Part shown: one piece after another, positions 7,435 through 53,657 of the stretch | Numbering within the stretch: the stretch's first letter is position 1 | Layout of the letters: each line of letters begins with the position of its first letter | NCBI GenBank assembly: GCA_051362555.1 | Contig: CM120641.1 | Coordinates: 39,562,401 to 39,626,400, forward strand | Source of the DNA: Lingula anatina | Lineage: Eukaryota > Animalia > Brachiopoda | Length of the DNA: 64,000 bases | Direction: 5' to 3' | Notes under the pieces: model-generated | Told to the model about the DNA's origin: nothing | Databases searched by the model: none | What the model saw: only the letters and a program-made list of their open reading frames with translations | Translations under genes and position numbers: made by a program

Positions 7435-8894
7435 GGGGGGGAGGGGGGGGGCTGACAGTACTCTGATAGAAGCTACTTTAAAACCTGTAACCCCAATTCC
7501 TGAAAAAGTTGACTTGATAGAAGCAAAAATATTTGAGTGTAAATAATTCTGATCTTAGCAGTTGTCTTTGGAAACTATCATAGTAACTTACACTTACTGC
7601 TCTTGATGATGTCTTTGTAATAACCCCACCTTTGGAATAAAACTGAATCTCAACCATAAACATGCCTAAAAATATTACAAGAAAACTTTTAAAATTTAGT
7701 GAAAGCCATTAAGTGAACACTTTGTTCTATAAAACATCATTTGTTTTGGAAAAAAATGTTTGCATATAAGGAATGTCAAAAAATATATTACATTCACAAT
7801 GGAACCATTTTGTATACAATAAAAAAGAGCATATACTGGTATGTAATGGAAAACACTTACCAAGTTTTTCATTTACAGGTGTTTCAGGCATTTCTAATTC
7901 TAGTAGCACTTTATACGGCTGTCCCTTAAGAAGAAGCTAAGGACAAAAATGAGTTAATCAGCAACTCTCTCAACAAAACTAAGATGTTGAAAAGTTAATA
8001 GAATCAGACTTTAAAAAGCCTGGTCATATACTATAATATAACAAAAATAATGCAATGTGTATAGACCAGGAGAATCCCTAGTATGTTCTTCCTATAATTA
8101 GGTTTCAAATACATGGTACATTTACCAAATGACATTTAAAGAAAATACCAACTGTACATTGTTAATGGACAGAGCAATATCACATGTTATGTCAATGTCA
8201 CAAAATTTTCCAAACTCATTTTAACATACCTGATCTCTACCATCTTTAACAAGGGAAATATTTGCAAATGGATATGAACAAGTCCTCTGGTTGGCTTCAC
8301 AGGAGGTGCTGACATAAAACAAAAAATTGAAAGCATAAGCTTAAGATTACTAGTAGTTTAATAAGTAAATCATTTTATAGTCTCTGGTATTTTTATCTTA
8401 AATACTAACCTACTATAATCATAATTGAATTGGTTCATTTAATAAAAAGAGATCTAAATCAAAAGCCCTGTCACTGATAATTTACCATGAATTATGAATA
8501 TACCTGTACACTAATGTTAGACAGAGCTAGAGAATAAATAAACTACATGTAAATATCTAAATAAAAGCATGAGATTCACAAACATGCCCTTGACTGTCTG
8601 CAGTTACAAAGCATATTAAGTGAATTTTGAGGGTAACATCTTACGACGCTGTAAATTATTATTAACTGTTCTAGTTTCTTACTTGATTTGAAAATGTACA
8701 GATCTTGAGTGTGACACCTGGGGCATATATGCATAATAAAAACTTCCGTAAAGAAATACCGCTGTCCACAATACGAATATTAAAACAATCCCAGCTCCCA
8801 ATAGTCTCGAAAAAATATCCTTTGTTGCATCATAAGCTTTTTTAGTCCTCTTCTGCAGCTGCTTCTTAAGGGCATCTACTGGTCGTCGCAACAT
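4699..8894 (-). CDS. BSCL2: Seipin (ER lipid-droplet biogenesis protein), 7 coding exons
   Basis: Approximate exons 8894-8683, 8308-8230, 7935-7860, 7665-7597, 6692-6558, 6069-5959, 5648-5464 and 4901-4699 give eight segments by my reading, so the exact exon count needs checking. Motifs: TM1 '[18 protein letters not shown]', '[10 protein letters not shown]', '[26 protein letters not shown]', '[28 protein letters not shown]', '[26 protein letters not shown]', TM2, and an acidic tail ending 'VRKRTV*'. Confidence 0.95.
7046..7340. mobile_element. Non-autonomous DNA transposon (hAT-like CAGGGGC.GAT termini) in a seipin intron
   Basis: Begins caggggcagatcc and ends ttccgccactg (imperfect TIRs). 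Flanked by a 5-bp direct repeat TGATC at 7041-7045 and 7341-7345. Confidence 0.6.
7390..7451. repeat. (TG)n microsatellite followed by a poly-G tract
   Basis: About 14 TG units then about 30 G. Confidence 0.9.
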
Positions 8895-9190
8895 CTTTCC
8901 TGCTCGTCGGGTTTTCCCGTGTATAGCCTTGACCTTTGGTGTTATTGTAAAGATAAGCCAGATTCGAAGTAAGAAGTACCGCCCTGTCTAATGTGTATAT
9001 CTTATTAGAAACAATCACAAATAGTTAAACATCTTTCTAAATGAAAACCTATTTCAATATATTAAATTGTGAAGCTGTGTCGTTTACCATGTCTTGAAAA
9101 TGGCAGACATCTGGCGGTCACAAATTGACATACATATATGTAGTATTCAAACAACTGAACCAGCAAATACCTGAAACCTGCATGTGGATA
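8895..9190. promoter_or_regulatory. Putative bidirectional promoter between seipin and LYPLAL1
   Basis: The two start codons diverge only about 296 bp apart. The interval contains AAAATGGC (YY1-like, ~9097) and GACATCTGGCGG (CTCF-like, 9106-9117). Confidence 0.65.
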
Positions 9191-12100: not shown

Positions 12101-14318
12101 TTATTTTGCTTTATGTAAAAAAGGTGTTGAAAATGGAAATAAACTCTTTCAATACAGTTTTCTCTTGTTTACATTTTGGGATTTTCAAAGTATGATTCTG
12201 AACTCTATAGGCTATTCACATTTTCTGAATATCCATGATACTTTTATTTTATTATTAAAAAATTTATGGTTATTATGCTGTTAAGCATTGTGTAATATTG
12301 CATCAAAATTGAACAAAACCCTGCCTCCGTAGTGGTGGTGAAAGGAAAACCATGTCACTTGCTCTTCTCACACTTACAGGAAAGAAACATAGGACTGAAA
12401 TTCAGCTTCAGTTGAAAAATTGTCTCATTGATTAATTGTTTGGAAGTAATACAGGTTTTTTTGTGAAAATTTTTATCTTTCACATGTTGCAATTTTCAGT
12501 GTGGGACTTAGAGCTCCCTTGGGCATGAAGCCCAGTGGTAATCAAATTTTCTTAATGTCCATGTTTTTAATAGTAGATATTTTAAAATTGGTGGTATTTA
12601 ATTAGTTAATCATTATGTAATGTTGCATCAAAATTGACAAAAAACCAACTTTGTGCTCTGCTACCATTAATATTATGTAAAGTAAAGTGTTACTTTCTAT
12701 TTTTTTACTATTCTTACAAAAATGATTCTTAGGATTGACATTCAGCTCATATTAGAGAACCAGCTCTATTGGATTATCATTTTTATTAAATTTATGAATT
12801 TTTTGTGAAATTTTCATTTTTCTCATTCTGGCACTTTCTAATTGTAAACTTGAATTCTGATGGGCCTGGAGCCTTATGCTTTTACTTTCATCAGTGTTAC
12901 CTGTACGTTGTGCATAATTAAAATTTGATGTTGACTGTGCAGTTAAACATAATGTATTATTGCATCAGAATTGGTAGTCTCCTGTTTTATTTTGTGCATT
13001 ATTGTTTTCTGCTTTTCTTAAGGTGTGACTTATGGACCTGAAGACCTTTGATAGACAAATTTGTGTGGTCAGTCTGTTAATTCCCCTTGGGTATTCACTA
13101 GGCTAATTTCATTGCTATAAACTCATTTGCCTAATTAAGCGGCCATTAAATGAAATTTCATAAAGCATACTTGTTGATATTTCCCTGTAAACTCCCAAAG
13201 GTTAAGCTCTCTGCTAGATAACATAGTGTCCATAATAAGGAAGCAGTGAATAGCAGCTTCATTGGAATTATATTTTTGTTATTTTCTTTTTAATTTTTTC
13301 TCCAACACTGGCATTTTTAAGATGTGATTTTTAACTCCCATCCACCTGAGGCTCTGCACATTTTCAGTATTTCCACATAAGCAGTTGTATTGGTATTTAT
13401 GTCTTTAAACACGCTGTAATATTATTTTATGCACTGTCATCATTTTTCATATATTGGGACTTTCATCATGTGAATTTTAACTCTCATGGTCCTGAAACTG
13501 TAATCTTATTGAAGGGGATTGATTGAGACCATTTTCTGGGTCTCCTGGAAGACAGTCAGATTTTAAAGTTTATATTTACGGGTTTCTGTTGGAAGACCAT
13601 CAAAATGGAGGATGGATCAACAAAGATACTTTGGAATACTGTCAGAAAATATCTCTGGATCTGCTCCTGTTATTGACCATGTTACCTGTTGTGCATGATT
13701 AAAAATCAGTGTTGACTGACTGTGCTATTATAAGCATATATTATTGCATCAAAATTGACAAAATGACCTATATTGCATCTTTTTTTTTCTGTTTTTTGTC
13801 TGTACATTTGACAGCTTTGCTGCCTTGTTTTTTTTTTTTTTTGAGGGCAGCCAGCACTAAACATTTTATTGCATACTTTTGAAAAAGGTTAAGACATTGA
13901 AGTAATTTACACAGGAATATATAGAAAAACATCCAAGATAAACTGAGGCCATGTACAATTTAAATGGTAGCAGAAAATCATAAGGTTTAGACATGAATTA
14001 TTTTTATGATTGTGTGAATATTCACTTGATGAATTAGGTAATGAGCCCAGAATTGACCTTGTAATTAATCATCCAAATCTGGATACTTTCCAGGGCCTGA
14101 AGCATGACTTTGGTCCTCTTCCACCCTTATTTCAAGCAGCAGGAACAGCAGATTCTTTGGTATTGTATGATTGGGTAGCCACAACAAATAAAGAACTCTC
14201 TGCTCTTGGTGTACAGACTACATTTCATAAGTTTGACAATCTTTGCCATGAGTTGAGTAGAGAGGAGGTCCAGTTAATGAGAAAATGGATTGAGGAAAGA
14301 GTACCAGATGATAGATGA
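9191..14318 (+). CDS. LYPLAL1: Lysophospholipase-like protein 1 (APT/LYPLA-family alpha/beta hydrolase), 5 exons
   Basis: Approximate exons 9191-9290, 9744-9843, 10234-10403, 10597-10712, 14094-14318. Motifs: '[12 protein letters not shown]', '[17 protein letters not shown]', 'VWFDRKQIS', nucleophile '[11 protein letters not shown]', Asp 'GTADSLV', His 'LCHELSREE'. An alternative in-frame ATG lies at 9182. Confidence 0.95.
10978..11760. repeat. Tandem array, 161-bp unit x ~5
   Basis: Unit start accgataacac recurs at 10978, 11139, 11300, 11461 and 11622; the last copy is degenerate. Confidence 0.92.
13511..13669. mobile_element. Short dispersed DNA-transposon-like repeat nested in the HINE; second copy at ~55373-55536
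   Basis: Shares 'tctgggtct.ctggaagac.gtcagatttt...aaaatggaggatggatcaacaaagata.tttggaa..ctgtcag.aaatatctctggatct' with the second copy. Flanked by TTATT direct repeats. Confidence 0.65.
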
Positions 14319-15523: not shown

Positions 15524-18500
15524 TCAACTTCTTCTGTTCCCTCTACAAAACATGGTTTTCTCTCTTTTTTGTGGGACAGTCTCTTTCTTAGTCACTTTGG
15601 ATGTTTGTGAAGCCCGCAGCTTTTCCTGCTTCTTTTTTAAAGCTGCCTGTCTTTTTCTTTCAATTTCTGCAGCAGTGCATCTGGACTGACTGGTCTGCTG
15701 GGTTGCTTGTGCTAGAAAAAAAGAACACCCTTCTCCAATTATCAAGAACAACTTTGATATCAACAATTGATCAATTCAATTACAAACATACAACACTAAA
15801 ATATACCCTTAGAGGTTTGCATGCACTGGCCACACAAGAATGGTGACTACTGAAAATAATCTATTAGTTTCAACTGTAATTATTTGGGGCACTTTTGAAA
15901 ATTAATACTATTTCACTTCTGAAACATGAATACAGTGATAGTTTTGTTATCAGTCCAGAGGACTAGCAACGACAGACTACAGTTCACCTAAAAGATTTTT
16001 TAATGTTCCTTGATCAATGATGTGAACTATGTCCCAATATCAAGCTGTTTTGACAGCCACTTTTGATTGAAATCAAGGTCACATATCAGATATCATCTTT
16101 GAAAATACAAGATTGTCCACTCCACAGGGTAAAGTGATGATATAAGCATTAATATGTGTGAAGTAAAGGAAAAATATGAATAAGGTTATAAATATATTTT
16201 TTTTTCATGGACTACTTACATTCCATGTGGTCCAATATAGCAAGGATCTGTGGTTCTGACAAGGCATCATCATCATCATCAAGTAAGGAATCACTGCTAG
16301 CATGTGCACATTCTAAAGAAAACAAAATCAGGATTAAACAAGTGGTGGATTGCTGGGAATAATCCTGCTCAAGACTAACCCTTGTGAACATTACAGGTAA
16401 ATGAGACAGACACAGCTTCAGGCATGTACTAGGGATTCTAATGTGTTATATCCTCATCATAACATTATACATTAACATTCATCAGTCCCCATTACATATC
16501 CTCAAAAAGAAGACATGGCATCATTGTGCTTTTACCACACATCGACTTGGGTTGCATTCACAACAGTGACTATTCTGCAGATCAAATGTGACCCACCCAC
16601 TTGAATGCTTGTTGTGAAATCCCCATGGGGAATTTATTCAATGTTCATTAGGAGGTTAGACAGCAAGCTTTTAAGTGGGTCGCCAGAACTATTAGTCTAC
16701 TGTTGTGAATGCAGCTATAGTCCATTTTTATGAATTTAAAATATAAAGAGTATATGCACAGTCAGTCACGTGAAGAAATAAATAATAATAATTTGAAAGT
16801 TGTCACAAAAGATGCTTGACACAAAACAATTACCTTCAGCTCCTGCAGCAGTATTGCCTGAAGTCTGTGCAGATGCCTGCACCTTGTCAAACTGAACCTG
16901 TGAACCATTTTGGTTTGATATGTTAACTTCTTTCGACATCCTGTTGGTACATAGCCTTCTGTTTGATTTAGCATTAGTGTCAGCTAAGCAAGTTTGAGGC
17001 TTAAGAATTTCAGCCTTCGCTGGTTTATGAGGGGTCGTTCCGTCCAAAACTTCATCTGGTTCTGCTAGCTGAAACAGCAGGTCATCTGTCAAACTGTTGT
17101 CATTCCAGTCACCAGACTTCAGCACCTTATGTTCATCTGAGATCACAGTAGGCTGTTTACTGCCAAGACCAACATCTGATTTATCAACAACATTGATATT
17201 TGGCACCGATCCAGTTGATGAATAGCTTTCTTTTCTACTTGTCTGGATTTTAAGTTCACATTTTGGCTGCAAGGAAGACCCATACTTCTTACTTGGATCC
17301 ATTTGCACTGTGTTTAATTTTGTGTTATGCTTGTTTGAATTTGTGGATGAAAAGTCAGTTTGCGCCATTTTACTCCTCTGCAGTTCAGTAGATTGTATCT
17401 TCCCTTTAAAATTAAACTTTTTCCCTAGTTTAATATGTTCCTTAACTCCATTTGAACAAGGGTCTTTGCTACTACAACTAGCACTTTTCAAAGTAGACAG
17501 TTGCTGGGACTGATCTCCAGTGCTGTGTTTCACATTACTGGTCCAATTTGACTGGCATTTCTTTTGTTGAACCAAATCCAACATATTCTGAGGGGTTAAG
17601 TTTGTATGAGATTTTGCTACAGTTGGAATATAATCAAGTACATTTTTATTAAGTACATTAGGTGGACCACTATCAAGACTGAAAGTGGCTCTGCCAGATT
17701 TTTTAACAGGGATGTCAAGTAGATCAGCGATGTTTCCACTTTTCCTCTTAACAGTCTTTGAGGCATGTGCTAAGGGGAAATCATCAAACATCTCTTGGGT
17801 AGCTTTAATGAGGGATTCATCATTGAAAAGGTCATCACTCTCCCAGCCATCATCAAGGGGTGCAATCCCATTTTCAAGAACATCATCTTGTTCTTCACAC
17901 AGACGTCTCTGGAACAGTGTGCCGTTTCGTTGCTGCTCAAGTATAGACTCCCTTTCAGTCTGGCTGAGCTGGGAGACGATCTGTGACAAGGCTGCCATGG
18001 TGCTTGGTGAGGAGGGAAGAACAACACTTCCTTTATCAAACACATAACTCAGTGGCTGTGTACTGGTCGTGTTATTGGATTCACCCACTTCTCTCACTTG
18101 TGTTAATTCCTCTTTTAAATCTTTTGAAGATTTACTGCAATAATAAAAACCTAGTATTCAATACATCTTTTTTTTTCATTGGCCCTGGGTTTGTTTTATA
18201 CCCAGAATGAATGGCAAAGCATAAAAGCTACAAGCATGAAAATCCTGAATCTATGAAGGCACAACTGTTCTTACACAAATCATTTTTGTATTCCAGTGCA
18301 CTAAAAAGCTTTGCATAAACTATGAATGATTTCACATTCTCTAATTCCCCAACTATAAAAAGCTGGTTAAATATGCTTAAATATAAAAAAATATAACAGA
18401 CATAGTTGTGACTTTGATACGTAATCTGTACTTTCTTTTTGCTTTCATGTTGCAAACAACATATTACCTATTTTTTCCATGTTCTGTTGTCTCATCTGAA

Positions 18501-23642: not shown

Positions 23643-23926
23643 ATGAAATTAGCAGATTACCAGTATATAGTAAAAAATATTCACCACTCGTGGAATAGAA
23701 ATTGCCTCCAGGACTTGGCAAAGAAATTTCCAGAGTAAGTGTGAACCGATTGATAACTTTGGCGTCAATTTAGCAGTTGTACAGTATATCAGTTGAGTTG
23801 TATCAAACTTGCTGTCCTGAGAATTCTTTTAAAGTAGTGATAAATAAATTTCATCTTGTAGAAAATATCCTTTGGGAGTGACACAGAAAATGATTTCAAT
23901 TCATGTCCAACTGTTAGTCAAATAAC

Positions 23927-23969
<43 letters not shown>

Positions 23970-24091
23970 TATTTTTAATTTCTCAGATATTCAGTGGAGA
24001 CCCTAGGAAGTATTTATTCGCAGGAATATCAGGTGGGTATAGACTGATTGAAGCTGAGGTATTCATATTTTCGTATTTATTATCATAGTGC

Positions 24092-24179
<88 letters not shown>

Positions 24180-27100
24180 ATTAAAATTAATAAATAAATA
24201 AATAAACAAAAGACATGCAATAACCCCGACTCCGAGTTTCACGGGCATACCCAGAAGGTATGCCCGATCGTCAGGAGGTTTATTTGAAAAATCTATATAT
24301 TGTATATGATATACATTAAAAAGAAAATAACAGTGCTACATGTAGAAGCTGATAATTTATATAGACTTGCCCTTCAAGAAATGTTTCTAAAATGTCCATT
24401 CAAATTTGAAAATGAGTAATTTTCTATTTCTTGAAGGGCAAGTCTACCATTCATATACATTGTGTACAGTACGTGTACCAGTGAAGATGGGTGTACACAG
24501 TGAAGGTTAGAAATGGCAGGGCCTGTCACAGGCTGTCAATGCTACAGGCTACAGTATTACTCACTCCATGTGGCAAAGACAATTGAATGTAATTTGTATA
24601 AACATGATTTTTATTTATATATATTTATTCATTATTACTATCATAAATTCACAGAATGATATGACTTAACGTAATTGTACAAAGAAACAAACAGTATTTA
24701 CTGAAGACTGAAGAGGATGAAGAATTCAACACATGGCACAAATTACATCAGTTATATAATTACAGAAACAAACACTCTTTTAAATTAAATTTAATTGAAT
24801 TCTGAATCATTCAGCAGGGGATGGATTAATCTAATTTTCTTCTCATTTTCTTCTTTGTTGAAAATTGATAATCATGACCAACTGCTGCCTTAATTAAAAG
24901 TTTTTTTTAATTCATTGAATTCTACTTACATTACTTATATGTAGTATCTGTTCACCAGACAATTAAAGTTTGTGTTATTGATGTGCTGATTGCAGAAAAA
25001 GATGAAAAAGACCCATTTTAAGCATTATACCCAGCATATTACAGAAGAGTATTATGACAGGTAGGTACAAGCACATCACTTCTTAAAGATCTCGAGTGTT
25101 TTTAGTGTGGTTTGCTTCAGAATTGGTGTCAGTTCAAATATGGTAGTTGCCATTGGCGGAACCTTGCTAAAGTGAATTCCCAGTCAACCTGCGAAAATAT
25201 TAGTTTTGCTTTAAATGCCAGTCGAATCTTTTCACTATCTGCTTTGAGGCTGAAATTTGCATTAACAAATTCGGACAAATGTGCCCTAGCTTCCATCTCA
25301 ACAGTACCTTCTCCATGGTCATATTTTGCTTGTATTCCTACATTTACTGCAGTGCCTGGGGGTCTAAATTGTACATCAAGTGAAGGTGTATCACTTAGTT
25401 GAAGGTGGGCTTCAGTAAAAAGCAATGGTGAAAACTTTATGACAAACTTGCTTGGGAAACCTACATGCCCATTCTCAAACTTGAAGCTAATGGAACCCTG
25501 ATATTCACACCAGGGGCTTCTGCAAGTGGCTAGTCTGAAGAAGTGGCTGGCTATCAGTGACTTGGGGTACTTAGTGATAAATCTCTGTAAAACTTTAACA
25601 AACTTTGGAACAATTTGAAGCTGTTCAATTTTAAGCTTAGCCTCGGTGGACCCAAAAGCCTTTATCCAGTGTTGTAAAGCATCAAGACATTGTGACAGTC
25701 CTTCTGTGGTGTCTATGATAGCTTTTAGTTGCTGTTGAAACTCTGTAAGTTGAAATTGTTCCTTGTCTTGAAACTCCACTGCTATATTTAGCAAACTTGA
25801 AGAAAGTAGTGGGATACTAAAATTGTAAAGTAAAAAGACGATGTTGAGGCTATTTCATAGTAAATTGATTTTAGTGTAATCATGAAATAATTTGGAAAGT
25901 GAAAGTAAACCTTATTGTTACTAATAAGAATGATTTGAAATTATATGCAATTGATATATGTAGGTAAATCTAAGTTTCAAATAGCCTTCATTTTAATATA
26001 AAAATTGTTAATAAAAAATACATACCTGTCAGACTGTGTGCATGCCAAAATAGATGCAAGTGCTATTAACCAAATTACATAATGAAATGAAACTGACATC
26101 TCTCTGTCTTTTACAAGTATCACTTCAAAAAATTTAACAGCTTGTTCAATGCAGCTTTATGGACTTCCAAGGTTCTTTTTGAAGTTCTGTAGAAAACTGT
26201 ACAAGGTATTTGTATGCCTTTGTAAGTTTCTAAGGAGAGTGATTTGGTGACAGTTTATCCATAGAAACTTCTTTTATATTCCTGTGAAAAGCATGATGCA
26301 TGTGTCATTTGCTGATTGGAAGAATTGAATATCAGCTTAAACCCTTATTGGTCAAAATGCAGGGAAATCCCCCAAGAAGTTTTTGCTCATCTATTTACAG
26401 CCAGATCTCCATAGCACATAATTTTTTTTGTCATGAAATTATTGATTTGCCTACAACAGTCAGTAGTTGTTTCTTTGAACTTAGTATTGGAATTTATTGA
26501 GTCCTTGAATATTTGGAACTTACGTAGTGACTACCACCACTATATTACATAAAGAATGCCACACTAAAATATCATATAGATAAGAATAAAAAATCAATCC
26601 TTTGGATATCTTTTTCTTTCACTTGGCTTAGGCAGTGGGAATGCCTGTATTATTATTATTTACATTTTGTGCAAAATGAGCAGTGTGGTAGTAATTTTAC
26701 CACCTAAAATGGCTGCGAAAGATTTGACATGTGTACCATTTAAGTTGTGCTTAATTAATTTAACACAATCACATAGATGTATTTGTTTGGAAGAGTGCAA
26801 TTTATTACCAGTTAGCATACATGATAGCAAACATCCATAAGACTTGTTTCAGCATGCTCATGCATTTGTGGTAAATCCTGATATAAGTCTTTTTCATATA
26901 TGATCCTGCTGTGATGCAAACTCTGGCTAAGTACATACATAATACCTGAGAGATTATCTTCTTTTGCTGGGGTAGCACTAAGGCCTCATTCAGAATAGGG
27001 GACTAACTAGTCCAAGGGTCAAATATGGCCGACCCACTTGAATACTTCCCCACGGGATATCTATTCAGTGTCTTTTAGCGGATTAGATGGCAAGCTTTGT

Positions 27101-30100
27101 AGTGGGTTGCCATATTTGACCCTCGGACTAGTTAGTCCACTATTCTGAATGGGACCAAATACTCGCCAAGCCAAATGCTAAAACTGACTTAAATTGGAAA
27201 ACAAAAAGGGCTTGATTTGACAAATTTAAGTCAAACTGAGACCATTTAGATAACAAATTGACAAAAAAGTGGTGATTTGGCTAGTCGAAAAAAATTGCCA
27301 GGGCTACCCCAGTCTTGGTCATATTTTGAGCTCTTATCTTGTTTGTCCATTGATAGCACTCTATATAGATCGCATTCACAACGAGTTGAGCCAGGCTTTA
27401 CAAATCTTGGGGACTAAATATGGCGGATGTACATGAAAGAAAAACCACCTAATCTTTTAATAGTCTCTCCGCCTCTCACACGCCTCCCCACACGTCATCC
27501 CTGCAGGGGGGACAGTCATTAAATCTCGGCTCCATTGGGACGACACATGGGGAGGCGTGTGAGAGGCGGAGAGGCTATTAAAAGATTAGGCGGTTTTCCT
27601 TCATGTACGTCCGCCATATTTAGTCTCCAGGATTTGTAAAGCCTGGCTCAACTCGTTGTGAATGCGACCTATGTGCTCATTCCCAGTGAAACTATATAGA
27701 ACAGTCCAACTCTGTGGGGACTCTTGCTGAATGCAATCAGATTAACAGATTGACACACTTCCTCTTGTTTCCAACTTAATCACCAGCTTTTCTGTATTCT
27801 ACTCAGCGCCAGGAAGATGCTTGTTAATCTGATTGCATTCAGTAAGTCCCTGTTGGGGTTGGTTCGATCTATGCAGACCAGCATTTGCATTGGAAATGAG
27901 CCCTATGCATGAAGTTAACAGAATTTAGGAAACACAAAATTAAATGTTCTTTAAAAAATAAGTTCTAGCTTCTGTTATTTAGGTACCAAATAGCCATAGG
28001 ACAGGGTCAGGAACAAGTGTTAGTGAAAATGTCAGAGAAGGTATTTCATTCTTTAATTGCTTTTGCTGTTCAAAGTACATATACAGTAATTTTGTAGAGA
28101 CAGACCAATTTCAGATGCTCTGACATTAAGTCACTCTCAAGACATCTACAGAGTGTGTGCATGTGCACAATTTCATTTGCTAAATTATTCCAGTAAATAA
28201 GTTTCCATAAAATATCTGAAATCTGCTATTACCTTTGGCTTTGGACAATATTAAGTGCCTATGCCTGCTTTTGTTGCAATTGTTAAGTTCTACTAAGTGT
28301 AATTTTATTCAATATTCAATGAGACTGTATACATTGTAGATGCTAGCATTTAATATTTAAAGGTTATTTTATAGCATTTAGTGTTTTTGGTGAATTGCAT
28401 CATCTAAATGTCTTCTCAGGTGTTTATATGGGTCAGTGCATTCATACTGATATGCTTTTTGTCCTCAGCTTCAAAAGTAATGGTAAAATCCATATAAACA
28501 ACATAGATGTATTATTGGATACAATGCTAGCCAAAAATTTGACTAAACTTGATTGGTTTCTTGAAAATTTTAGGTGGACCTTTCACCTATTCTTCTGGCT
28601 AGAATTGTCCTGGAAAGACATTTAGCTCACACAGTGTATGGTGGAGAAAATGGTAAGTGATTAAAAAAAAAAGAAAAGAAAATAAGTGTCAAATAAACTT
28701 TTATTGAAAGAAAATGATATTCATGTAAAGATATGTAATCACTAACTGTAATAAGGAATACCTTTAGTACTGGAAGGAAATACAAACTTTTCAAGCTATT
28801 TGTTTTGTTTCCAGTGCCAAAAAGTGTACTTAGTCAACAGTTGAAAGATCCCAGTTTAATAGAAGATGCCGTGCTGGCCAATGAAGTCAGTCTGGTATGC
28901 AAAGTTTATGTATGGTTTTTACAGTGAAATGCTAATGTCTGCTCACCATCAAACATGCAGTTCTGTACATTTGTTAAACATTAGCAATAAATGAAAATTT
29001 CCATAAACACATTAGCAATAAATGAAAATTTCCATAAACAAAGTAATTGTTGGCTTGTCACATTCTATTGCACTTGTTGATTTATTTTTATTTTCAGTGT
29101 CTTCTCATGGATGATAATTATGGTCATTATGTGGACACTATAAAACAGTATCCTTTTATTTGAACTAAAACAGCATATGGGAGACCTGTTCAAGATTATG
29201 TCACATCAATACAGAAGGCTCTGATATGACAAGCTTTGCAGTTTATAGCCTCATCAGATACAATGATATTTAGCATTGTTAATGACATCAAAAGGCCATC
29301 AAGAAAATGCAGCCAGTGACTGACCATAGGAAAAATAAGTATTTTGAATAATTGTTTGTCTTTCTTTAACATGAACAAAGCTCAGTCGGTCATGAATATG
29401 AACTGCTGCTTAAGGAAAAAGTGGAAGAAAAAGGTCTAGCTTATTTAGGTGAGTTCCACATAAATACCAAACTGCATTAAAATTCTTGATGATATACAAT
29501 TTTGATTTACACAAGTTTATCTTCACTGTTTTAATCAGAAATGAACTTTTTCACTGAAACAGAAGTTTTTCATATTTTTTTGTAAAACACGAGTAAGTCA
29601 TATTCCGTTATTGTGGTCATTTAGAACAAGGTGGTTAACATGCCACACTCCCCCCCCCCACCACCACACACACACACACACACAAACACACACAGTGACA
29701 CACTCTCACACACACTAACCCACAAAAACGGCTAATAATAAATGATAATAACAATAATAGCAATGGCAATAAATAAAGGAATTATTATTTTTGATTGTAA
29801 AAATGCAGGTGAAGATCAGCTGAGGATTAGAGGATATGACAAGACTCCAGACACAAAGCTAGAGGTGCCAATAGGTAAATTAGTCTTTTGGAAGTGTCAA
29901 TTAAATGTGGATTTTATTCTTTTAAAGCCGCTTTTACAATATTTATCAAACCATTTCAACAGCAGAGAAGATAGGAGCTTTAATTTAAGTCTGTCACTTT
30001 CTTTTTTTTTAAAATTGGATGCCACTTTAAAAAAAATAGATTTTTTAAATAAAGATAATACCTTCTGACAATAAATTTCATATTTATTTCAGCTGTAGAT

Positions 30101-30546
30101 GGCCATGTTGTAAATTGGATTGAAAGTAAAGCATCATTTGGAGATGAAGACAGTCATAAGGGATATCTAAAAGACCAGTTTTGGAGTTATTGGAACAGGT
30201 AAATAAGAACAAAAATACCTTATGTTTATTCTTTCAAATCAATGTTTTTCACACTCAGCAACAGGGCAACACACACACACACACGGTTCCAATCTTAACA
30301 TTCCTAACGCAATAGGTAACAAGAATACTAAAATCAAACTCTGTAGAACAGGGTAGTCCAAGTAAAAGTAACATATACCTTTTTTCTGCTTTTAGATTTG
30401 GGCCTGGATTAGTTATCTACTGGTTTGGTTTCATTGATGAACTGGACACAAACAGGGACAAGGGCATCCTACTCATGGACCACTTTCCAGAGAATATAGT
30501 ATACATGAACCCTAAGATAGTGTCTAGGGCACAGTCTGTAACTTGA
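23643..30546 (+). CDS. CDIN1: CDAN1-interacting nuclease 1 (C15orf41 homologue; PD-(D/E)xK-type fold)
   Basis: Approximate exons 23643-23734, 23987-24032, 24996-25060, 27983-28040, 28574-28652, 28815-28894, 29098-29147, 29381-29448, 29809-29873, 30093-30198, 30395-30546. Motifs: '[16 protein letters not shown]', '[12 protein letters not shown]', 'DDNYG..VDTIKHSVGHEYE', '[19 protein letters not shown]', '[12 protein letters not shown]', '[21 protein letters not shown]'. Confidence 0.95.
24093..24175. repeat. (TA)n microsatellite
   Basis: About 40 TA units with one interruption; a (TTA)n run also lies at ~23929-23970. Confidence 0.95.
25129..26099 (-). CDS. Uncharacterised 253-aa secreted protein, nested antisense in CDIN1 intron 3
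   Basis: Coding exon 26099-26026 encodes a signal peptide [24 protein letters not shown] and ends AG|gtatgt (phase 2). It joins in frame through a pyrimidine-rich ttttag| acceptor to the 688-nt exon 25816-25129, which contains the 221-aa ORF of the track. An acceptor at ~26282 implies a further upstream UTR exon. Confidence 0.8.
26981..27156. mobile_element. Palindromic MITE
   Basis: Inverted arms 'cattcagaatag.ggactaactagtcc.agggtcaaatatggc..cccact' and 'agtgggttgccatatttgaccctcggactagttagtccactattctgaatg'. Confidence 0.8.
27365..27671. mobile_element. Palindromic MITE with ~130-bp TIRs
   Basis: tagatcgcattcacaacgagttgagccaggctttacaaatc... is mirrored by ...gatttgtaaagcctggctcaactcgttgtgaatgcgaccta. 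Confidence 0.88.
27675..27902. mobile_element. MITE; family member also at ~62737-62975
   Basis: Termini gctcattcccagtgaaa and tgcattggaaatgagc; internal inverted pair gctgaatgcaatcagattaaca / tgttaatctgattgcattcag. Confidence 0.75.
29148..29380 (+). other. U12-type (minor spliceosome) GT-AG intron in CDIN1
   Basis: Donor GTATCCTTT. Branch TTCTTTAAC lies 10 nt before the intron end, with no polypyrimidine tract. Splicing restores the frame DTIKH-SVGHEYE. Confidence 0.88.
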
Positions 30547-41900: not shown

Positions 41901-44900
41901 GGCTATGATATTTAAAATGTCAATACATATTTTGAAATAATTGAAATGCATATTTGCTTTTATGCCATTAGAAGGGCGTATTGGTTATAGAAAATTTACC
42001 AAAGTTCAATTTTCTGTGTATGTGGCATAGCCAATGACTTAAGAGTCTCAGTATTGTGTCTTTTATCTTCTGTAAAAAGCCTTTTAATTTTCCTACTGCA
42101 CTTTCTTAAAGAGCATTGCATAGTGAAAGGTGTTTAAAGATTAATTTGCAAAGACTACTGACAACTATTGACCTGTTGTGATATTTAAACTTTCATTTGG
42201 AGAAAAAAAAGTCACATGCATTGCTTTTAACAAGGCACTAGTGTTACAGTGAAAAATTTCACTATGCTGCAATACTGGAGCAACTTGCTTATCTTGCTGT
42301 CGCCTCTGCATTCGCTTAAGTTGAGTTCAGATCCCATTTTGCAGAAGGCCATATTGCTCCATGGTCCAGTGTACCTTCAAGTTGTACCTGGTTGTTTTCA
42401 GGTGGTTTGACAAATCTCTAGTAATGTTTGCGTTTGCTGATGGGCGTTCTGGTGCCTTAGCTGAACATGCCACTGCTGATGCCACGGTAAATTGGAGGGT
42501 CTGCTTTGTCTTGTTTAGAATTGTTAGATTCCGGAGAAGACAGAACTGACGCGTACAATATTATACAATTATATACTTTGGCACAGGTCAACATGTTTTT
42601 TGCAGACCTAAAAATAAAATTGGTGCTGCAAAACAACATATTGATGAAAAAACAAAGATGTATAATTGTTTAATTATATAATTATTACCGAAATGGCAAT
42701 GTCTTCCAAGATGACATTAAGAGTTGCAACTTTGATGTTACACGAAATTGCCGTCATCTGATTGATAAAATGTTTCCAATCTGATTGGTTAAAAAAAATG
42801 TCTATGATGCTTTATTATTTTCAATCATTGTTTGGTGATGATGTCATTGGTAATTGCCATGTTTTATCCACCCTCAAATTCATGGATAAAAGACAATAAT
42901 CTATGCTTCTTATAAAATAACATTATTTTTGAAAGCTGTGCATTTGCATTGTGGGTTGCTATTTATAGTAATTGGACAATTGGTGTTTTTTTTTGTAGGG
43001 TGGGTTGGGGGGGGGGGTAAGATGATGTTGTACCTTTAATTTAGTTTGTCATTGTAATCTCATTTTTGTCTTCTTTCATTGTTGTTGGAGAAATTTCATC
43101 TGGCCTTATGCAGTTCTTTAGTTCGTTTGCATGTAGTTACCCTTGTCTTTTGAATTGTTTCCCCTAACTCTTAATGTTTCTTTTTCCTTTTATAATAGCA
43201 AACAATGTACTCTAAATTTAGTTTTTAGTTTTGTAGTCATGAAAAAATAATTTTGCATAAATTTTAAGTATCCATTGCCCATTCAGTTTTTAAACTGTAC
43301 ACATGTTTCATAAATATTTGAAGTGATTTTATATATAATTCTTAATAGCAAAAATTAAATCATTTCATACACCATTAAATGCACAGATCTATTCACTATA
43401 TTTCTAGACTTCAAATTATTTTCTAATTTTAGCTCTTTTCACGACTTTGGGAATATGCACAGTTCAGGGAGAGGTATACTAAAAATGGTGATGTAGAAAA
43501 GCAGGAGGGGGAAACTGTAAGATATCTTAAGCCTCCTAAAAGGTAAATGATTTTATTAATTAAAGTTCGGTGATTTCTTATTTAGGCTATGATACTTTAT
43601 TCTTTTTGCATATAGCTATGAGAACATTATATACATTTTATATTTAAATAGATTTATTGCATTATAAACAAGCTTGTTATCAGTTTATAGGTTCCAAATG
43701 TTTTAAACAAGAGCACTTCAAGATTTAAAGGATGAATTCTTAGATGACTATTTTATTTAGTTAAAAATAAAAAAAAAGTGAAATCAAGCCTCTAACTTTT
43801 TTGTCTAGGCTACAATGGGATGTAACTGGATTTGAAGATTCGATAACCAGTGCTCTTGCTGAGCACAAAGCAAATGTAAGACACTCCTACAGTCCTACTT
43901 TGATGTGATGTGTAAAATATCACAAAGACAGTTTGAATAAAATGTGCAGAAAAAATTTCTCATGTTAACATTAAGGTTATGACTATTCATTTACTTAAAT
44001 AATTGAAATTTACTAGCTAAGCAACTAAGGTTTGTGAAAATTTGTTAAATTATAGGTTGATGATTTGGACATGTTTGTTCAGCCATCAGATTATGGTAAA
44101 GGCTGGATCAAGAAGAAACATATCAGTCCAGATGGATATCTACAGGTATGAAGGCACCTCTGATACCGAGAACATGCAAGACAATGTATACCCATCTATA
44201 AGCTGTAAAACATTTATATTTGGCCTAAGGCAAATTACTTTTGAAATATTTTGCGACAATGCATTTATAGTTCTTATTTTATAACTTTTTGAAGAATGTA
44301 TTGAAAAATTTACAGACAGTAGTTTTAGGCATAATTTGCTCATGTCACTTATTCACATGAAAAAAATTATGAAATTATTATTATTGATTTCAGATGGCCA
44401 TGCAGCTTGCTTACTTCAGATTGCATGGAGATACACCAAAAACTTACGAATCTGCATCAACAAGGTAAAGTACTTCATTCAGATATTTTGTGCACAGCAG
44501 ACAACATTTTCATCTTCAATGATAAGTGCACATGTACATGTATGCACACTTTTTGCCATGCACACAATTAAACCTATTTCCCTTTCAGAATGTTTGCCCT
44601 TGGTCGCACAGAGACTATTCGCCCTATATCTGAGCACTCTGTCAGTTTTGTGAAAGCTATGGACAACCCAAGCGCAACCTCTGATACCAAGATAAATCTC
44701 CTAAAGAAGGCTGTCCATTATCAAACTCAGTACAAGATTGATGCTACCAATGGAGAGGGCTGTGATCGTCACTTGTTGGGACTTTACTGTGTTTCCAAAG
44801 AGCTAGGAATGCCTGTGCCTTCACTGTATATGGATAAGGTACATTGTACATGTTGCCATTTTGGATATTCATCTTAGTGCGCTGTAATTGTAATTCTAAA

Positions 44901-50400: not shown

Positions 50401-53400
50401 TTTCTCTTCATAAAAAGATAATGCATGAATAAAATAGGAGAATTTTAAATGACCCTCTTATACTTTTTAAACTTAACAAAGTTATTGCATCATCATGATT
50501 AGTTTTTTGGGGGTAGTGGTAAACAGAGAAGGTGCATAGGTATACAGAAAATTTAAACATTTATATGGAACACAATTCTGTTTTAACCATACAAATTCAT
50601 TGAGAATGATTCTCTTTCGTGTTGATTAATCTCAGCTTATTTTTTCACAGCCTAGCTATGCACTACCTGCATGAAGTTCATGGTCTTGCCTATGATGTTC
50701 AGGACAATGAATTAAAATCTCCACTGCATATAGTGAGCTCCCACGCACATTTGGATGCAGTAAAGTACCTTTTGAAATCTAATGTAAATAAACTTGGCTT
50801 TTTCCATTAAATTGACAATTTATCAATATGCGTTATAAAATCATATCATTTCTTCTCTTTATGCTTCAACAGTCATTTCAACTTTTGTCTCCAGCTTTGA
50901 CAGATTTTTGATTTTTATTTCACATATGCCAAATTAAATACAAATTTGAGTTACGTATAATAATTTTTAACTGGTTTAAAGAGAGATTTGTTTTTGAAAT
51001 TATTTTCTCATTGTTCTTACTGTGCATAATTGCTCATATTTTCAGAGATGTAACCCCCATTTGACAGATGTGTATGGGAACAATTCTCTTCACTTTGCCT
51101 GCAAACATGGCCATGCCCAGATAGCATGGCAGTTACTGGTGGCAGGAGGCTGTAGGTTGCTGCATTCCAAAAATAAAGATGGGCATACTCCAATTGAAGT
51201 AGCAAGAGCTCAGAAAACATCCAAGTGAAGTATTACTTTATTTACAGATAGTATGAAATTATTATTATTTTTTTTTTTTTATTTCTATTATTATTATTTT
51301 TTTGAGGCATAAGCAGCATTCAACTTTTGGTCATTTTATTGAATGTAATATTATTGTTTGGTTATATTTTTATATTATTGTATCTCTGAAAAATAATTGC
51401 TGATTCATTTTATGTCAGTGAAGATACAATTCATGATTCATTTCAAATTAATCAATATAATGTATCTTTCTATATTATCAGGTCAACAGAGTGTTCTCGC
51501 CTGTTATCTTATTACATGTACATAAAGGATGAGGACTACAGACCAGCAGGACCCACTGTACCCTGGCTGTGGCACCTGACCATGCCAGCTGTGCTGTATA
51601 TTGTGGCCCTGGTGCTAGCTTATCTATTACAGGACCACACCGGAAGTCAAGGGCTGATAGTGTTTGGGGAATTGGCTTTATTTATTTTTCTGTCCACTAA
51701 ACATCAGCATAGAATGCTACATGTGTGTAGGTATGTGTATGATGCATTTCATATTTTGTATTTGGACAAAATGGCTTTGTGTTATAGTATGCTGTAGTAT
51801 TACCATGTAAGGTTAGGATACATCGACGCGTTGTCTTTTTTATATGGTGTGATAGGATTGAGTGTCAGAATTTAAGAACAGTTGGTATTTTGAGAACATA
51901 TTTGTACTGCATACTGTGTCTAAAAAGAGCACATTTTCTGTATGTATTTTTGTACTATACAAAATGATTACAAAAGATTTATTATCATGGTATGTAAGTA
52001 CTAGAAAAATAATTAGAAAAGAGTTATTATCACATTATTTTTCTTCATTTCAGATGGCCAAATCCTTTGTTTGCAGGCAGTTTTGCAGCTGGTTTATTCA
52101 TCACATTGGCTTGCTACTACCTCCAAATGTTTAGTTGTATCCTCTGTTATTGAAAAAGAAGAGCAGCCAACTCTTTGACATTTTTGTGATCACTTTCTAC
52201 AATAATTAATCGCTTAATTAAAGTTTCATTAATTATTTATAGTTTCTGATACAGTATTTTGTTATTTGTACTTATAAAAATGATTTTAGGTAAATGGTTA
52301 ATTTATTCTTGATTTTGCATTTGAATAATGAGTAAAAAGTACCATTTTGTCAGTAGTGTCTTGAAGTGTAAACACAATCTTCTTAACACTGCATAGATGT
52401 CTCTCATCATCATTACTTGAACCTTCTGTCAATATCTCTCACTGCTGTCATGCTGTATATGTACTGGAGACTTTGGACTCGTGATCCTGGTAAGTGATAT
52501 TTTTAAGCAGTAACATTGTTAGAATTTCCAGCAAATTACCTTGCATTGGTATAAAAAGACAGAAAAAGAATAAAAAATTGACCTACATAGATTCTTACAA
52601 CTTACAAATAGTCTATAATATTTTGTTTTGAAAGAGTAACATATTTGTTTAATCATCACAAAGTTAACAGTGACTGATGTATTTTTGTTAAAACTAAATT
52701 TTCAGTTGTAAATTTGAACTGTCATAAATTGGTTGCCTTGCAGGTGTTGTCCGCGTCTCTGCCTTGAAGCCCAATAATGGTGGATATTACAGTGTGAGAG
52801 ATGTAGCTACAGGACAGGTGTCCCCTGAAATGTTTTGTACAACATGTGAGGTAGGTTCACTCACAGGATAAAATGCCTCATTTAAGGCTGGCCTAGAGAA
52901 TTTTTGGATGAGAAAGAAAATTGTGCTCCTTGATTTTTTCCTTTTATGAAAATAAAAACCGATTTTTCCACAACTAATTTGTGATGACATTAAAAGGTAA
53001 GTGGTTTAAATTGCATGTGTAGGTAATTTTATAGAAAAAATAACAGATTTTATCAAATTTATTTAAGATATAATAAGTAATATATTTTAACAATACAATT
53101 TAAAAGGAAAAGTTGACATACTTTGCAACTGAATTTGTGACAGACAAGTATATGATGGCTATTTTCTATCAATACAATTCCAGATTGTTAGACCACTGAG
53201 GAGCAAGCATTGTAAGCTTTGTGAACAGTGTATCCAGGGCATGGATCACCACTGCCTGTTTTTGCTACGCTGTGTGGCCAAGCACACCCATAGACTCTTC
53301 ATTCTCTTCATCATTACTGTGCTGTGCAGTCAGGTGCTGTTCCTGGTCCAGGTCTATCTCTACTACCAAGCTGTGTTACCCAGTGTAACAAGCAATGACT

Positions 53401-53657
53401 GGTTCATATATGTTAAATCTGCCTTCAATCAACATGCGTGGGTGCTTAGCTTATCTGTCTTGAACTTGGGATCTATACTTTGGGGACTGAAATTGCTCAA
53501 ATTTCAACTTAGTTTAGTCTCCAAAGGATACACTACAGTTTTTCAGCCTCATTTTCAAAAAGAAAGTGGACTGTCAAAGTTAGAAATGGTATTGAATGTG
53601 ATATATTTCATAGCTGGAAAAGGTTTATATCTGAAAGATCCACTTTTTGATGTTTGA
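47473..53657 (+). CDS. Ankyrin-repeat DHHC palmitoyltransferase (ZDHHC13/17/Akr1-like), 9 exons
   Basis: Approximate exons 47473-47620, 50140-50386, 50651-50783, 51046-51224, 51482-51730, 52054-52136, 52397-52489, 52744-52850, 53184-53657. About six ankyrin repeats (TPLHKAC, TPLHYAC, AMHHAA, SPLHIVS, NSLHFAC), TM helices, 'RDPG', and 'FCTTCEIVRPLRSKHCKLCEQCIQGMDHHCLFLLRCVA'. Confidence 0.93.
47874..50076 (+). mobile_element. Helentron-associated non-autonomous element (HINE-type), ~2.2 kb, in intron 1 of the DHHC gene
   Basis: 5' ttatggtaccaccagc-gtaggc-gctggcggtacc hairpin, a (GGCTCCkGC)n microsatellite and an internal tandem array. The 3' end has the inverted subTIR gctggtggtacaata, a stem-loop gaggcg-gtat-cgcctc and terminal CTAGTTTT. 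Confidence 0.8.
48883..49875. repeat. Tandem array, 146-bp unit x ~7
   Basis: Unit start tatctc(c/t)aaa recurs at 48883, 49029, 49175, 49321, 49467, 49613 and 49758. Confidence 0.95.
52137..52396 (+). other. U12-type GT-AG intron in the ankyrin-DHHC gene
   Basis: Donor GTATCCTCT; branch TTCTTAAC lies 9 nt before the intron end. Splicing gives the open frame YLQMFS-Y-VSHHHYLNLL. Confidence 0.85.

Follow-up and report, generated by a model that had tools for sequence, protein, structure and literature searches.

A likely secreted protein gene nested antisense in CDIN1 of Lingula anatina carries an amphipathic helix-and-sheet module and occurs in two strongly diverged versions

Large lipid transfer proteins are long chains that carry a Vitellogenin_N-type domain detectable by profile. 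In lipovitellin and in calycins of the FABP type, an amphipathic sheet lies beside helices, and the FABP order runs from one strand through helices to nine further strands. Known beta pore-forming proteins include aerolysin, MACPF, Cyt and actinoporin. Among gamete proteins of marine invertebrates, lysin and bindin are known to evolve fast. In the bridge proteins VPS13 and ATG2, the RBG unit is described as a five-strand meander with a cross-back helix, repeated to form a groove between organelles (PMC7613979). In Biomphalaria, immune families are reported to be over-represented among hyperdiverse genes, and the loci PTC1 and PTC2, of unknown family, show extreme within-species divergence that is read as balancing selection (PMC10875847).

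The gene described here lies on the minus strand of a 64,000-nucleotide stretch of the Lingula anatina genome (GCA_051362555.1, contig CM120641.1, positions 39,562,401 to 39,626,400), hereafter the window, to which all coordinates refer (Table 1). An earlier note on this DNA had proposed, from the letters alone, that a signal-peptide-type exon joins a 688-nt stop-free exon in phase to give 253 amino acids, and had named the 26026/25816 junction for an RNA check. Both points are borne out. The coding total is 762 nt (253 codons and a stop), and ten reads of RNA run X18, with six different starts, cross the joint, which reads CT..AC on the plus strand, i.e. GT..AG on the minus strand; the other three of the four RNA runs examined gave no read across it. 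Three further X18 reads use the same donor with three extra bases and keep the frame, and at 80% likeness X18 covers both exons with depth falling in the intron. Chance alone would give 0.002 open frames of 241 codons in the 64-kb window. The gene is therefore real, spliced and expressed. It is expressed at a modest level, with 151 reads among 11 million records, and clearly so in one of the four runs; the near absence of depth over the ORF in X12 and X15 at 90% likeness may only reflect the loss of divergent reads. Upstream, X18 depth climbs from the bin 26235-26285 into 26184-26234, consistent with a promoter role for the TATA-like box at 26278. The note had also placed the gene wholly inside a CDIN1 intron; this holds for the reading frame, whereas RNA depth suggests that the 3' UTR extends beyond it and crosses CDIN1 exon 3 antisense, with reads in both mate directions. 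Depth within CDIN1 intron 2, at 24727-24980, is present in X18 and X19. For the depth over 24727-25128, intron retention is an alternative to a 3' UTR of the nested gene.

Table 1. Features of the nested gene, its product and its host intron (window coordinates)
Feature	Position	Strand	Details
Exon 1, coding	26026..26099	-	74 nt, ATG to GT donor; 24 aa plus split codon; likely signal peptide
Nested-gene intron	25817..26025	-	209 nt, GT..AG, 22% GC; 10 RNA reads, 6 starts, run X18
Exon 2, coding	25129..25816	-	688 nt, 228 aa plus stop; X18 RNA covers all
TATA-like box	26272..26278	-	Motif; X18 RNA depth begins about 30-50 nt downstream
5' UTR	26100..26240 (start approximate)	-	From X18 depth; ATG scan finds no upstream ATG below 26262
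Probable 3' UTR	24770..25128	-	Antisense over CDIN1 exon 3; candidate ATTAAA at 24911 and 24795
Amphipathic helical region	25528..25749	-	Exon-2 residues 23-96; model helices with pLDDT <50
C-x4-C-x-Y motif	25501..25524	-	Predicted likely disulfide
Amphipathic beta-meander	25147..25506	-	Nine strands by sequence, eight assigned in model
Diverged block	25042..25730		In X1, 76 substitutions and two 3-nt indels in 689 nt
Host intron, third coding intron of CDIN1 (C15orf41)	25061..27982	+	RNA joint and exon map

The host is identified as CDIN1 by a Pfam TPD match and by exons that fit L. anatina CDIN1 almost residue for residue, which places the window in L. anatina or its species complex, and the intron holding the nested gene is spliced in three of the four RNA runs (1, 5 and 3 reads). 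Antisense nesting of this kind is nothing unusual; in Drosophila, nested structures are reported to involve about 10% of genes (PMC3814207). CDIN1 occupies 23643-30546 (+), and the public L. anatina protein set contains two copies of it that are 99% identical. These differ at 3 of 286 residues; one lies on a 112,012-nt contig, the other on an 11,730-nt contig. The CDIN1 of the window is a mosaic, with exon 2 from one public copy and a later residue from the other. An apparent alternative first exon at about 24490-24590 (+) is used by the public isoforms P0028 and P0030. The same intron also contains, upstream of the nested gene, three inverted-repeat (MITE-like) elements (26982-27156, 27365-27672 and 27723-27846), which many RNA reads from other copies fit partly; Rfam returned no match in this intron. 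Further away, the neighbours at 8682-8987 (-), 14010-14315 (+), 44572-44874 (+) and 53133-53654 (+) include seipin, a phospholipase/carboxylesterase-like exon (below the cut-off), a carnitine acyltransferase and a DHHC palmitoyltransferase, so that several lipid-handling genes lie near CDIN1, possibly by chance. A 463-codon low-complexity ORF without a Pfam match at 16766-18157 (-) is oriented head to head with CDIN1.

The gene model itself is already on record in RefSeq as L. anatina LOC106180008 / XP_013419323.1, "uncharacterized". In the literature searched by the identifiers LOC106180008, XP_013419323 and A0A1S3K9L6, no mention was found, and the three are absent from one supplement of PMC13425148, which may use other gene identifiers. 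The RefSeq protein (P0003) is likewise 253 aa long, has the same exon boundary, is 79-80% identical to the window protein (P0001) and was the one match among 120 candidates in a homolog search, making it the sole close relative found. A HMMER search over 1.84 billion representatives gave two matches, adding P0004, a protein of 588 aa (E 8e-16, 23% identity) from one 2,489-nt Logan contig, whose N-terminus may be incomplete. A profile search over 7282 candidates returned two matches and no further members, and no relative was found in metagenome, prokaryote-genome and viral contigs. The earlier note had suggested a possibly lineage-specific protein, which is right only in part, since P0004 is a distant homolog.

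P0004 consists of three tandem modules spaced 174-176 aa apart and 48-61% identical to each other. A profile built from these three modules scores the window protein at 33 bits, against 8.0 for the best of 2000 shuffles. The order of elements is common to both proteins: a first strand, a long amphipathic helix, two shorter helices, a cysteine pair with a tyrosine, and an amphipathic meander. The spacing of the motif differs, C-x5-C-x-Y in all three P0004 modules versus C-x4-C-x-Y in the Lingula protein. By alignment, each P0004 module comprises some seven strands and three helices, the final three strands being present only in the last module, and by inspection the chain would contain about 24 strands in one polypeptide. 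Since a distant homolog carries three tandem copies of it, the module appears to be a real domain. The sixth strand of an inner module passes without a break into strand one of its successor, suggesting a single sheet that runs on through the modules and takes up a helical insert every seven strands.

These data also dispose of the reading in which the ORF would be the remains of a transposon or a frame open by chance, which we give next to no weight. The three inverted-repeat elements in the intron speak for it; against it stand the spliced RNA, the presence of a single copy in the 64-kb window, the codon-position GC pattern (0.51/0.35/0.34) and the homologous module elsewhere. Neither dispersed copies with foreign flanks in three DNA runs nor a transposase or reverse transcriptase profile in Pfam and NCBIfam was found. 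A match to a transposon protein or a well-known family, which the earlier note had named as refuting, was thus sought in Pfam and NCBIfam and did not appear, and the splice reads together with the homolog rule this candidate out.

The N-terminus of the window protein is hydrophobic (9-residue hydropathy up to 2.78) and no membrane helix follows, so that, judged by hydropathy, exon 1 likely encodes a signal peptide and the 253-aa protein would be secreted. The proposal of a helical N-half followed by an amphipathic beta-meander agrees with the amphipathy measured against 1000 shuffles, with limits set by eye: helical z is 3.6 for exon-2 residues 20-100 and strand z is 6.1 for residues 104-220. 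P0003 and four regions of P0004, also delimited by eye, show similar amphipathy (z 2.5-4.8). About ten alternating strands had been placed after the C-x4-C motif; the alternation holds, and the count is nine after the motif with a probable tenth before the helices. The strands are short (6-10 aa), strictly alternating and have aromatic residues at their ends, one face carrying 3-5 hydrophobic residues per strand and the polar face being charged at 17 of 37 positions. The hydrophobic face could simply be the core of the protein.

Structure prediction does not allow a fold to be assigned. In the AlphaFold2 model of the window protein (mean pLDDT 46, pTM 0.37; meander 54-65) there are four helices and a meander of eight strands, and this low-confidence model does not show the helices packed on the sheet; the model of P0004 alone (pLDDT 33.7) is unusable. 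Foldseek comparison with PDB and BFVD, which had been suggested as a check, produced no match at E 0.001 or better. VIA-align returned membrane barrels and flat meanders, generic rows with no clear winner (best Z 9.8, rmsd 5.0, 117 aligned) that cover residues 105-228 and hardly probe the helical half of the poor model. In the ESM Atlas the best scores, 0.85 and 0.84, were under the useful level.

At the sequence level, the earlier view that the protein falls in no recognised family is upheld. Pfam and NCBIfam gave only chance rows (best E 0.11), and PDB sequences gave no match for the protein and one chance row (E 0.1) for the profile. By these profile comparisons the protein is not a member of the large lipid transfer proteins, the RBG bridges, the calycins, the known pore-formers or the transposon proteins. 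The suggested likeness to the sheets of large lipid transfer or pore-forming proteins found no support in these profile comparisons. An amphipathic sheet near helices recalls lipovitellin; however, the Lingula protein is far smaller at 253 aa and no Vitellogenin_N-type Pfam row appeared at E up to 10 for the window protein, P0003 or P0004. When the poor model is compared, lipovitellin (1lsh_B) stands at rank 37 amid unrelated rows (Z 7.3, rmsd 4.9, 99 aligned). The FABP order of strand, helices and nine strands resembles that of the Lingula protein, but FABP is a ten-strand barrel and the internal P0004 modules have too few strands to form one; no lipocalin or FABP match was found in Pfam or PDB sequences, and with the same poor model CRABP2 is at rank 40 (Z 5.6, rmsd 3.1, 65 aligned). 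The nearest repeat logic is that described for RBG bridges, in which a helical element also stands between successive meanders, and in both cases the repeats could build an extended hydrophobic groove (PMC7613979). The RBG unit, as described there, nevertheless has five strands and one helix with a loop, in contrast to the roughly seven strands, three helices, cysteine pair and likely signal peptide seen here (PMC7613979); the models of the window protein and P0004 are too poor to reveal how the strands are connected. There is no sequence link between the two, and no Pfam row for a Chorein_N-like first domain in the window protein, P0003 or P0004. The protein may still work in the manner of a lipid-binding sheet protein.

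The same anatomy invites the reading that the protein is a beta-pore former, in which the helices would swing aside and several nine-strand sheets would assemble a membrane barrel. The strict alternation and aromatic strand ends fit this, membrane barrels head the structural comparison (Z up to 9.8, rmsd about 5), and P0004 would supply its 24 or so strands from a single chain. Yet any long meander gives such rows, none of which covers the helical half, the strands are short, and no profile of a known beta pore-former matches in Pfam or NCBIfam; we consider this reading a poor prospect.

The second unusual property of the gene, which the earlier note missed, is its variation. In each of three DNA samples (X1, X3 and X6, from three studies and chosen for containing the window type), both the window type and a second type of exon 2 are present, at window/second-type depths of 65/46, 26/21 and 33/48, respectively. 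The two versions, both open frames, diverge by about 11% at the DNA level and by about 20% at the protein level. Both were seen over most of the diverged block in X3 (64 differences in 556 nt) and X6 (39 in 317 nt and 20 in 228 nt) as well as in X1, and window-type contigs differ from the window at only 0-2 sites. The split into two types closes on both sides of exon 2, and none of the contigs at 80% likeness or more in the three DNA runs continues into unrelated DNA. The intron and exon 1 together have 8 substitutions in 193 nt; divergence peaks within the coding exon, and no more than 200 nt upstream it is down to a few percent, so that the 11% in exon 2 compares with about 4% or less nearby and about 1% in the host CDIN1. 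Heterozygosity of the species is given as 1.6% (PMC4595640). The flank contigs are single, and if small bubbles were merged, the depth deficit in X1 corresponds, on a model-based estimate, to at least 1.3-2.2% hidden variation, close to that published figure (PMC4595640). Divergence well above both the flanks and the species background, found here with intact frames, is what a balanced hyperpolymorphic locus should display.

The RefSeq protein P0003 represents the second type: it has both indels, and the 40 rows listed include 30 coding sites of exon 2, at 28 of which it agrees. It differs from the window protein at 47 of 228 exon-2 positions, including 18 charge changes with a net shift of -7 (pI 8.4 vs 5.8), and is equal to it at 23 of 24 exon-1 residues; the cysteine motif and the first strand are identical between the versions. 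Both coding indels keep the frame, and 9 of the 10 non-coding indels listed are single bases or not multiples of three. The chance of no stop arising in 72 random changes is 0.03. The differences are clustered by variance (p 0.003 and 0.04), whereas the peak-window value, p 0.054, speaks less for clustering. With amino-acid changes taken from P0003 and the rest from contig totals, which gives rough bounds, pN is about 0.11 and pS 0.12-0.17, hence a dN/dS of 0.60-0.93 that varies with the assumed non-coding share; among the listed sites there are 23 nonsynonymous and 7 synonymous changes against a neutral 533:151. The ratio is high and not above one, and establishes neither positive selection nor strong constraint; the overall value above one that would mark a balanced defence or recognition locus was not obtained. 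At nearly all listed sites the reads of X18 have the letters of the second type, and they also show changes of their own, which indicates at least a third version, and the flanking DNA of X18 differs from the window too. All X18 reads at the listed sites bear non-window letters, so the RNA seen is that of a non-window version.

The versions are probably alleles of one locus. The alternative, to which we assign a minor share, is that they are paralogs from a segmental duplication that included CDIN1, with flanks kept alike by recency or gene conversion as exon 2 diverged. A fixed duplicate would also be expected to show both types in three of three samples; however, these samples were picked for the window type, which raises the odds of both showing. 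The two CDIN1 copies of the public assembly, one on the 11,730-nt contig that is either a haplotig or a duplicate, point the same way, as does the summed depth of the types in X1 (111 vs 71-86 in the flanks, split about 59:41). Conversely, the gene is single in the window, no contig at 80% likeness or more enters other DNA, and the window CDIN1 combines residues of both public copies. In X6 only the second type is found at 11 sites in 25648-25700, with both types further 3'. The P0003 gene and one CDIN1 copy are both on 112,012-nt contigs with near accession numbers. The recombinant forms, together with the absence of foreign flanks, make alleles more likely than paralogs without proving them.

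Two further readings bear on the divergence. In one, constraint on the gene is weak, its product is an ordinary carrier or matrix component that is secreted, and the second version is a neutral haplotype, either introgressed or very old, that stems from a cryptic Lingula lineage. The dN/dS of about 0.6-0.9 and synonymous divergence of about 12-17% would agree with this, as would the second type carried by the more distant sample X18 and the cryptic lineages reported in L. anatina (PMC8146825). The peak of divergence inside the coding exon, the intact frames and the preservation of the motif common to P0004 argue against it, and we judge it unlikely. In the other, the protein serves a broadcast spawner in recognition between gametes or of self and non-self, its alleles kept by sexual or compatibility selection and not by pathogens. 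It is small, likely secreted, highly polymorphic and expressed in some samples only, and such proteins evolve fast in marine invertebrates; but expression is modest where seen, and the Pfam and PDB searches gave neither sequence nor fold likeness to a known gamete protein, which makes this reading rather improbable.

The explanation that we tentatively put first, doubtful as it is, assigns the protein to defence or recognition: it would be secreted, contact lipids or membranes, and have its versions kept by long-term balancing selection. The protein would be exported via its signal peptide, with its amphipathic helices packed against the hydrophobic side of the sheet; the pocket closed in this way would contact lipid and could open onto a target membrane. 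Varying foreign surfaces, such as microbial or parasite envelopes, would drive the divergence with its many charge changes, and old alleles of different surface charge would be maintained. What is observed is the gene structure with its splicing, the two open versions, the amphipathy and, in another organism, a homologous module; pocket, ligand, secretion, allelism and selective agent are what the proposal adds to them. The link from hyperdiversity to immunity is drawn by analogy with Biomphalaria, where PTC1 and PTC2 offer a likeness in divergence and unknown family; the loci described there are mostly clustered transmembrane proteins, whereas the Lingula gene is single, likely soluble and nested in an intron (PMC10875847). 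A bolder form of the defence proposal, which must be regarded as a long shot, envisages an extracellular lipid-groove fold not described before: seven strands would form an amphipathic meander under a helical lid pinned by a disulfide, and such units could be joined in tandem. The single Lingula unit would then act as a humoral membrane-recognition or attack effector, with ancient charge-opposed alleles older than the split of the cryptic lineages.

Two points are new here: the module, which is undescribed, and how extremely the versions of the gene have diverged. Defence and recognition effectors of brachiopods are little known, and a gene whose protein differs by about 20% between versions, when its host gene differs by about 1%, points strongly to an interface of host and pathogen or of gametes. 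As the module matches no family and yet occurs in tandem in another organism, its structure could define a new secreted amphipathic-sheet domain.
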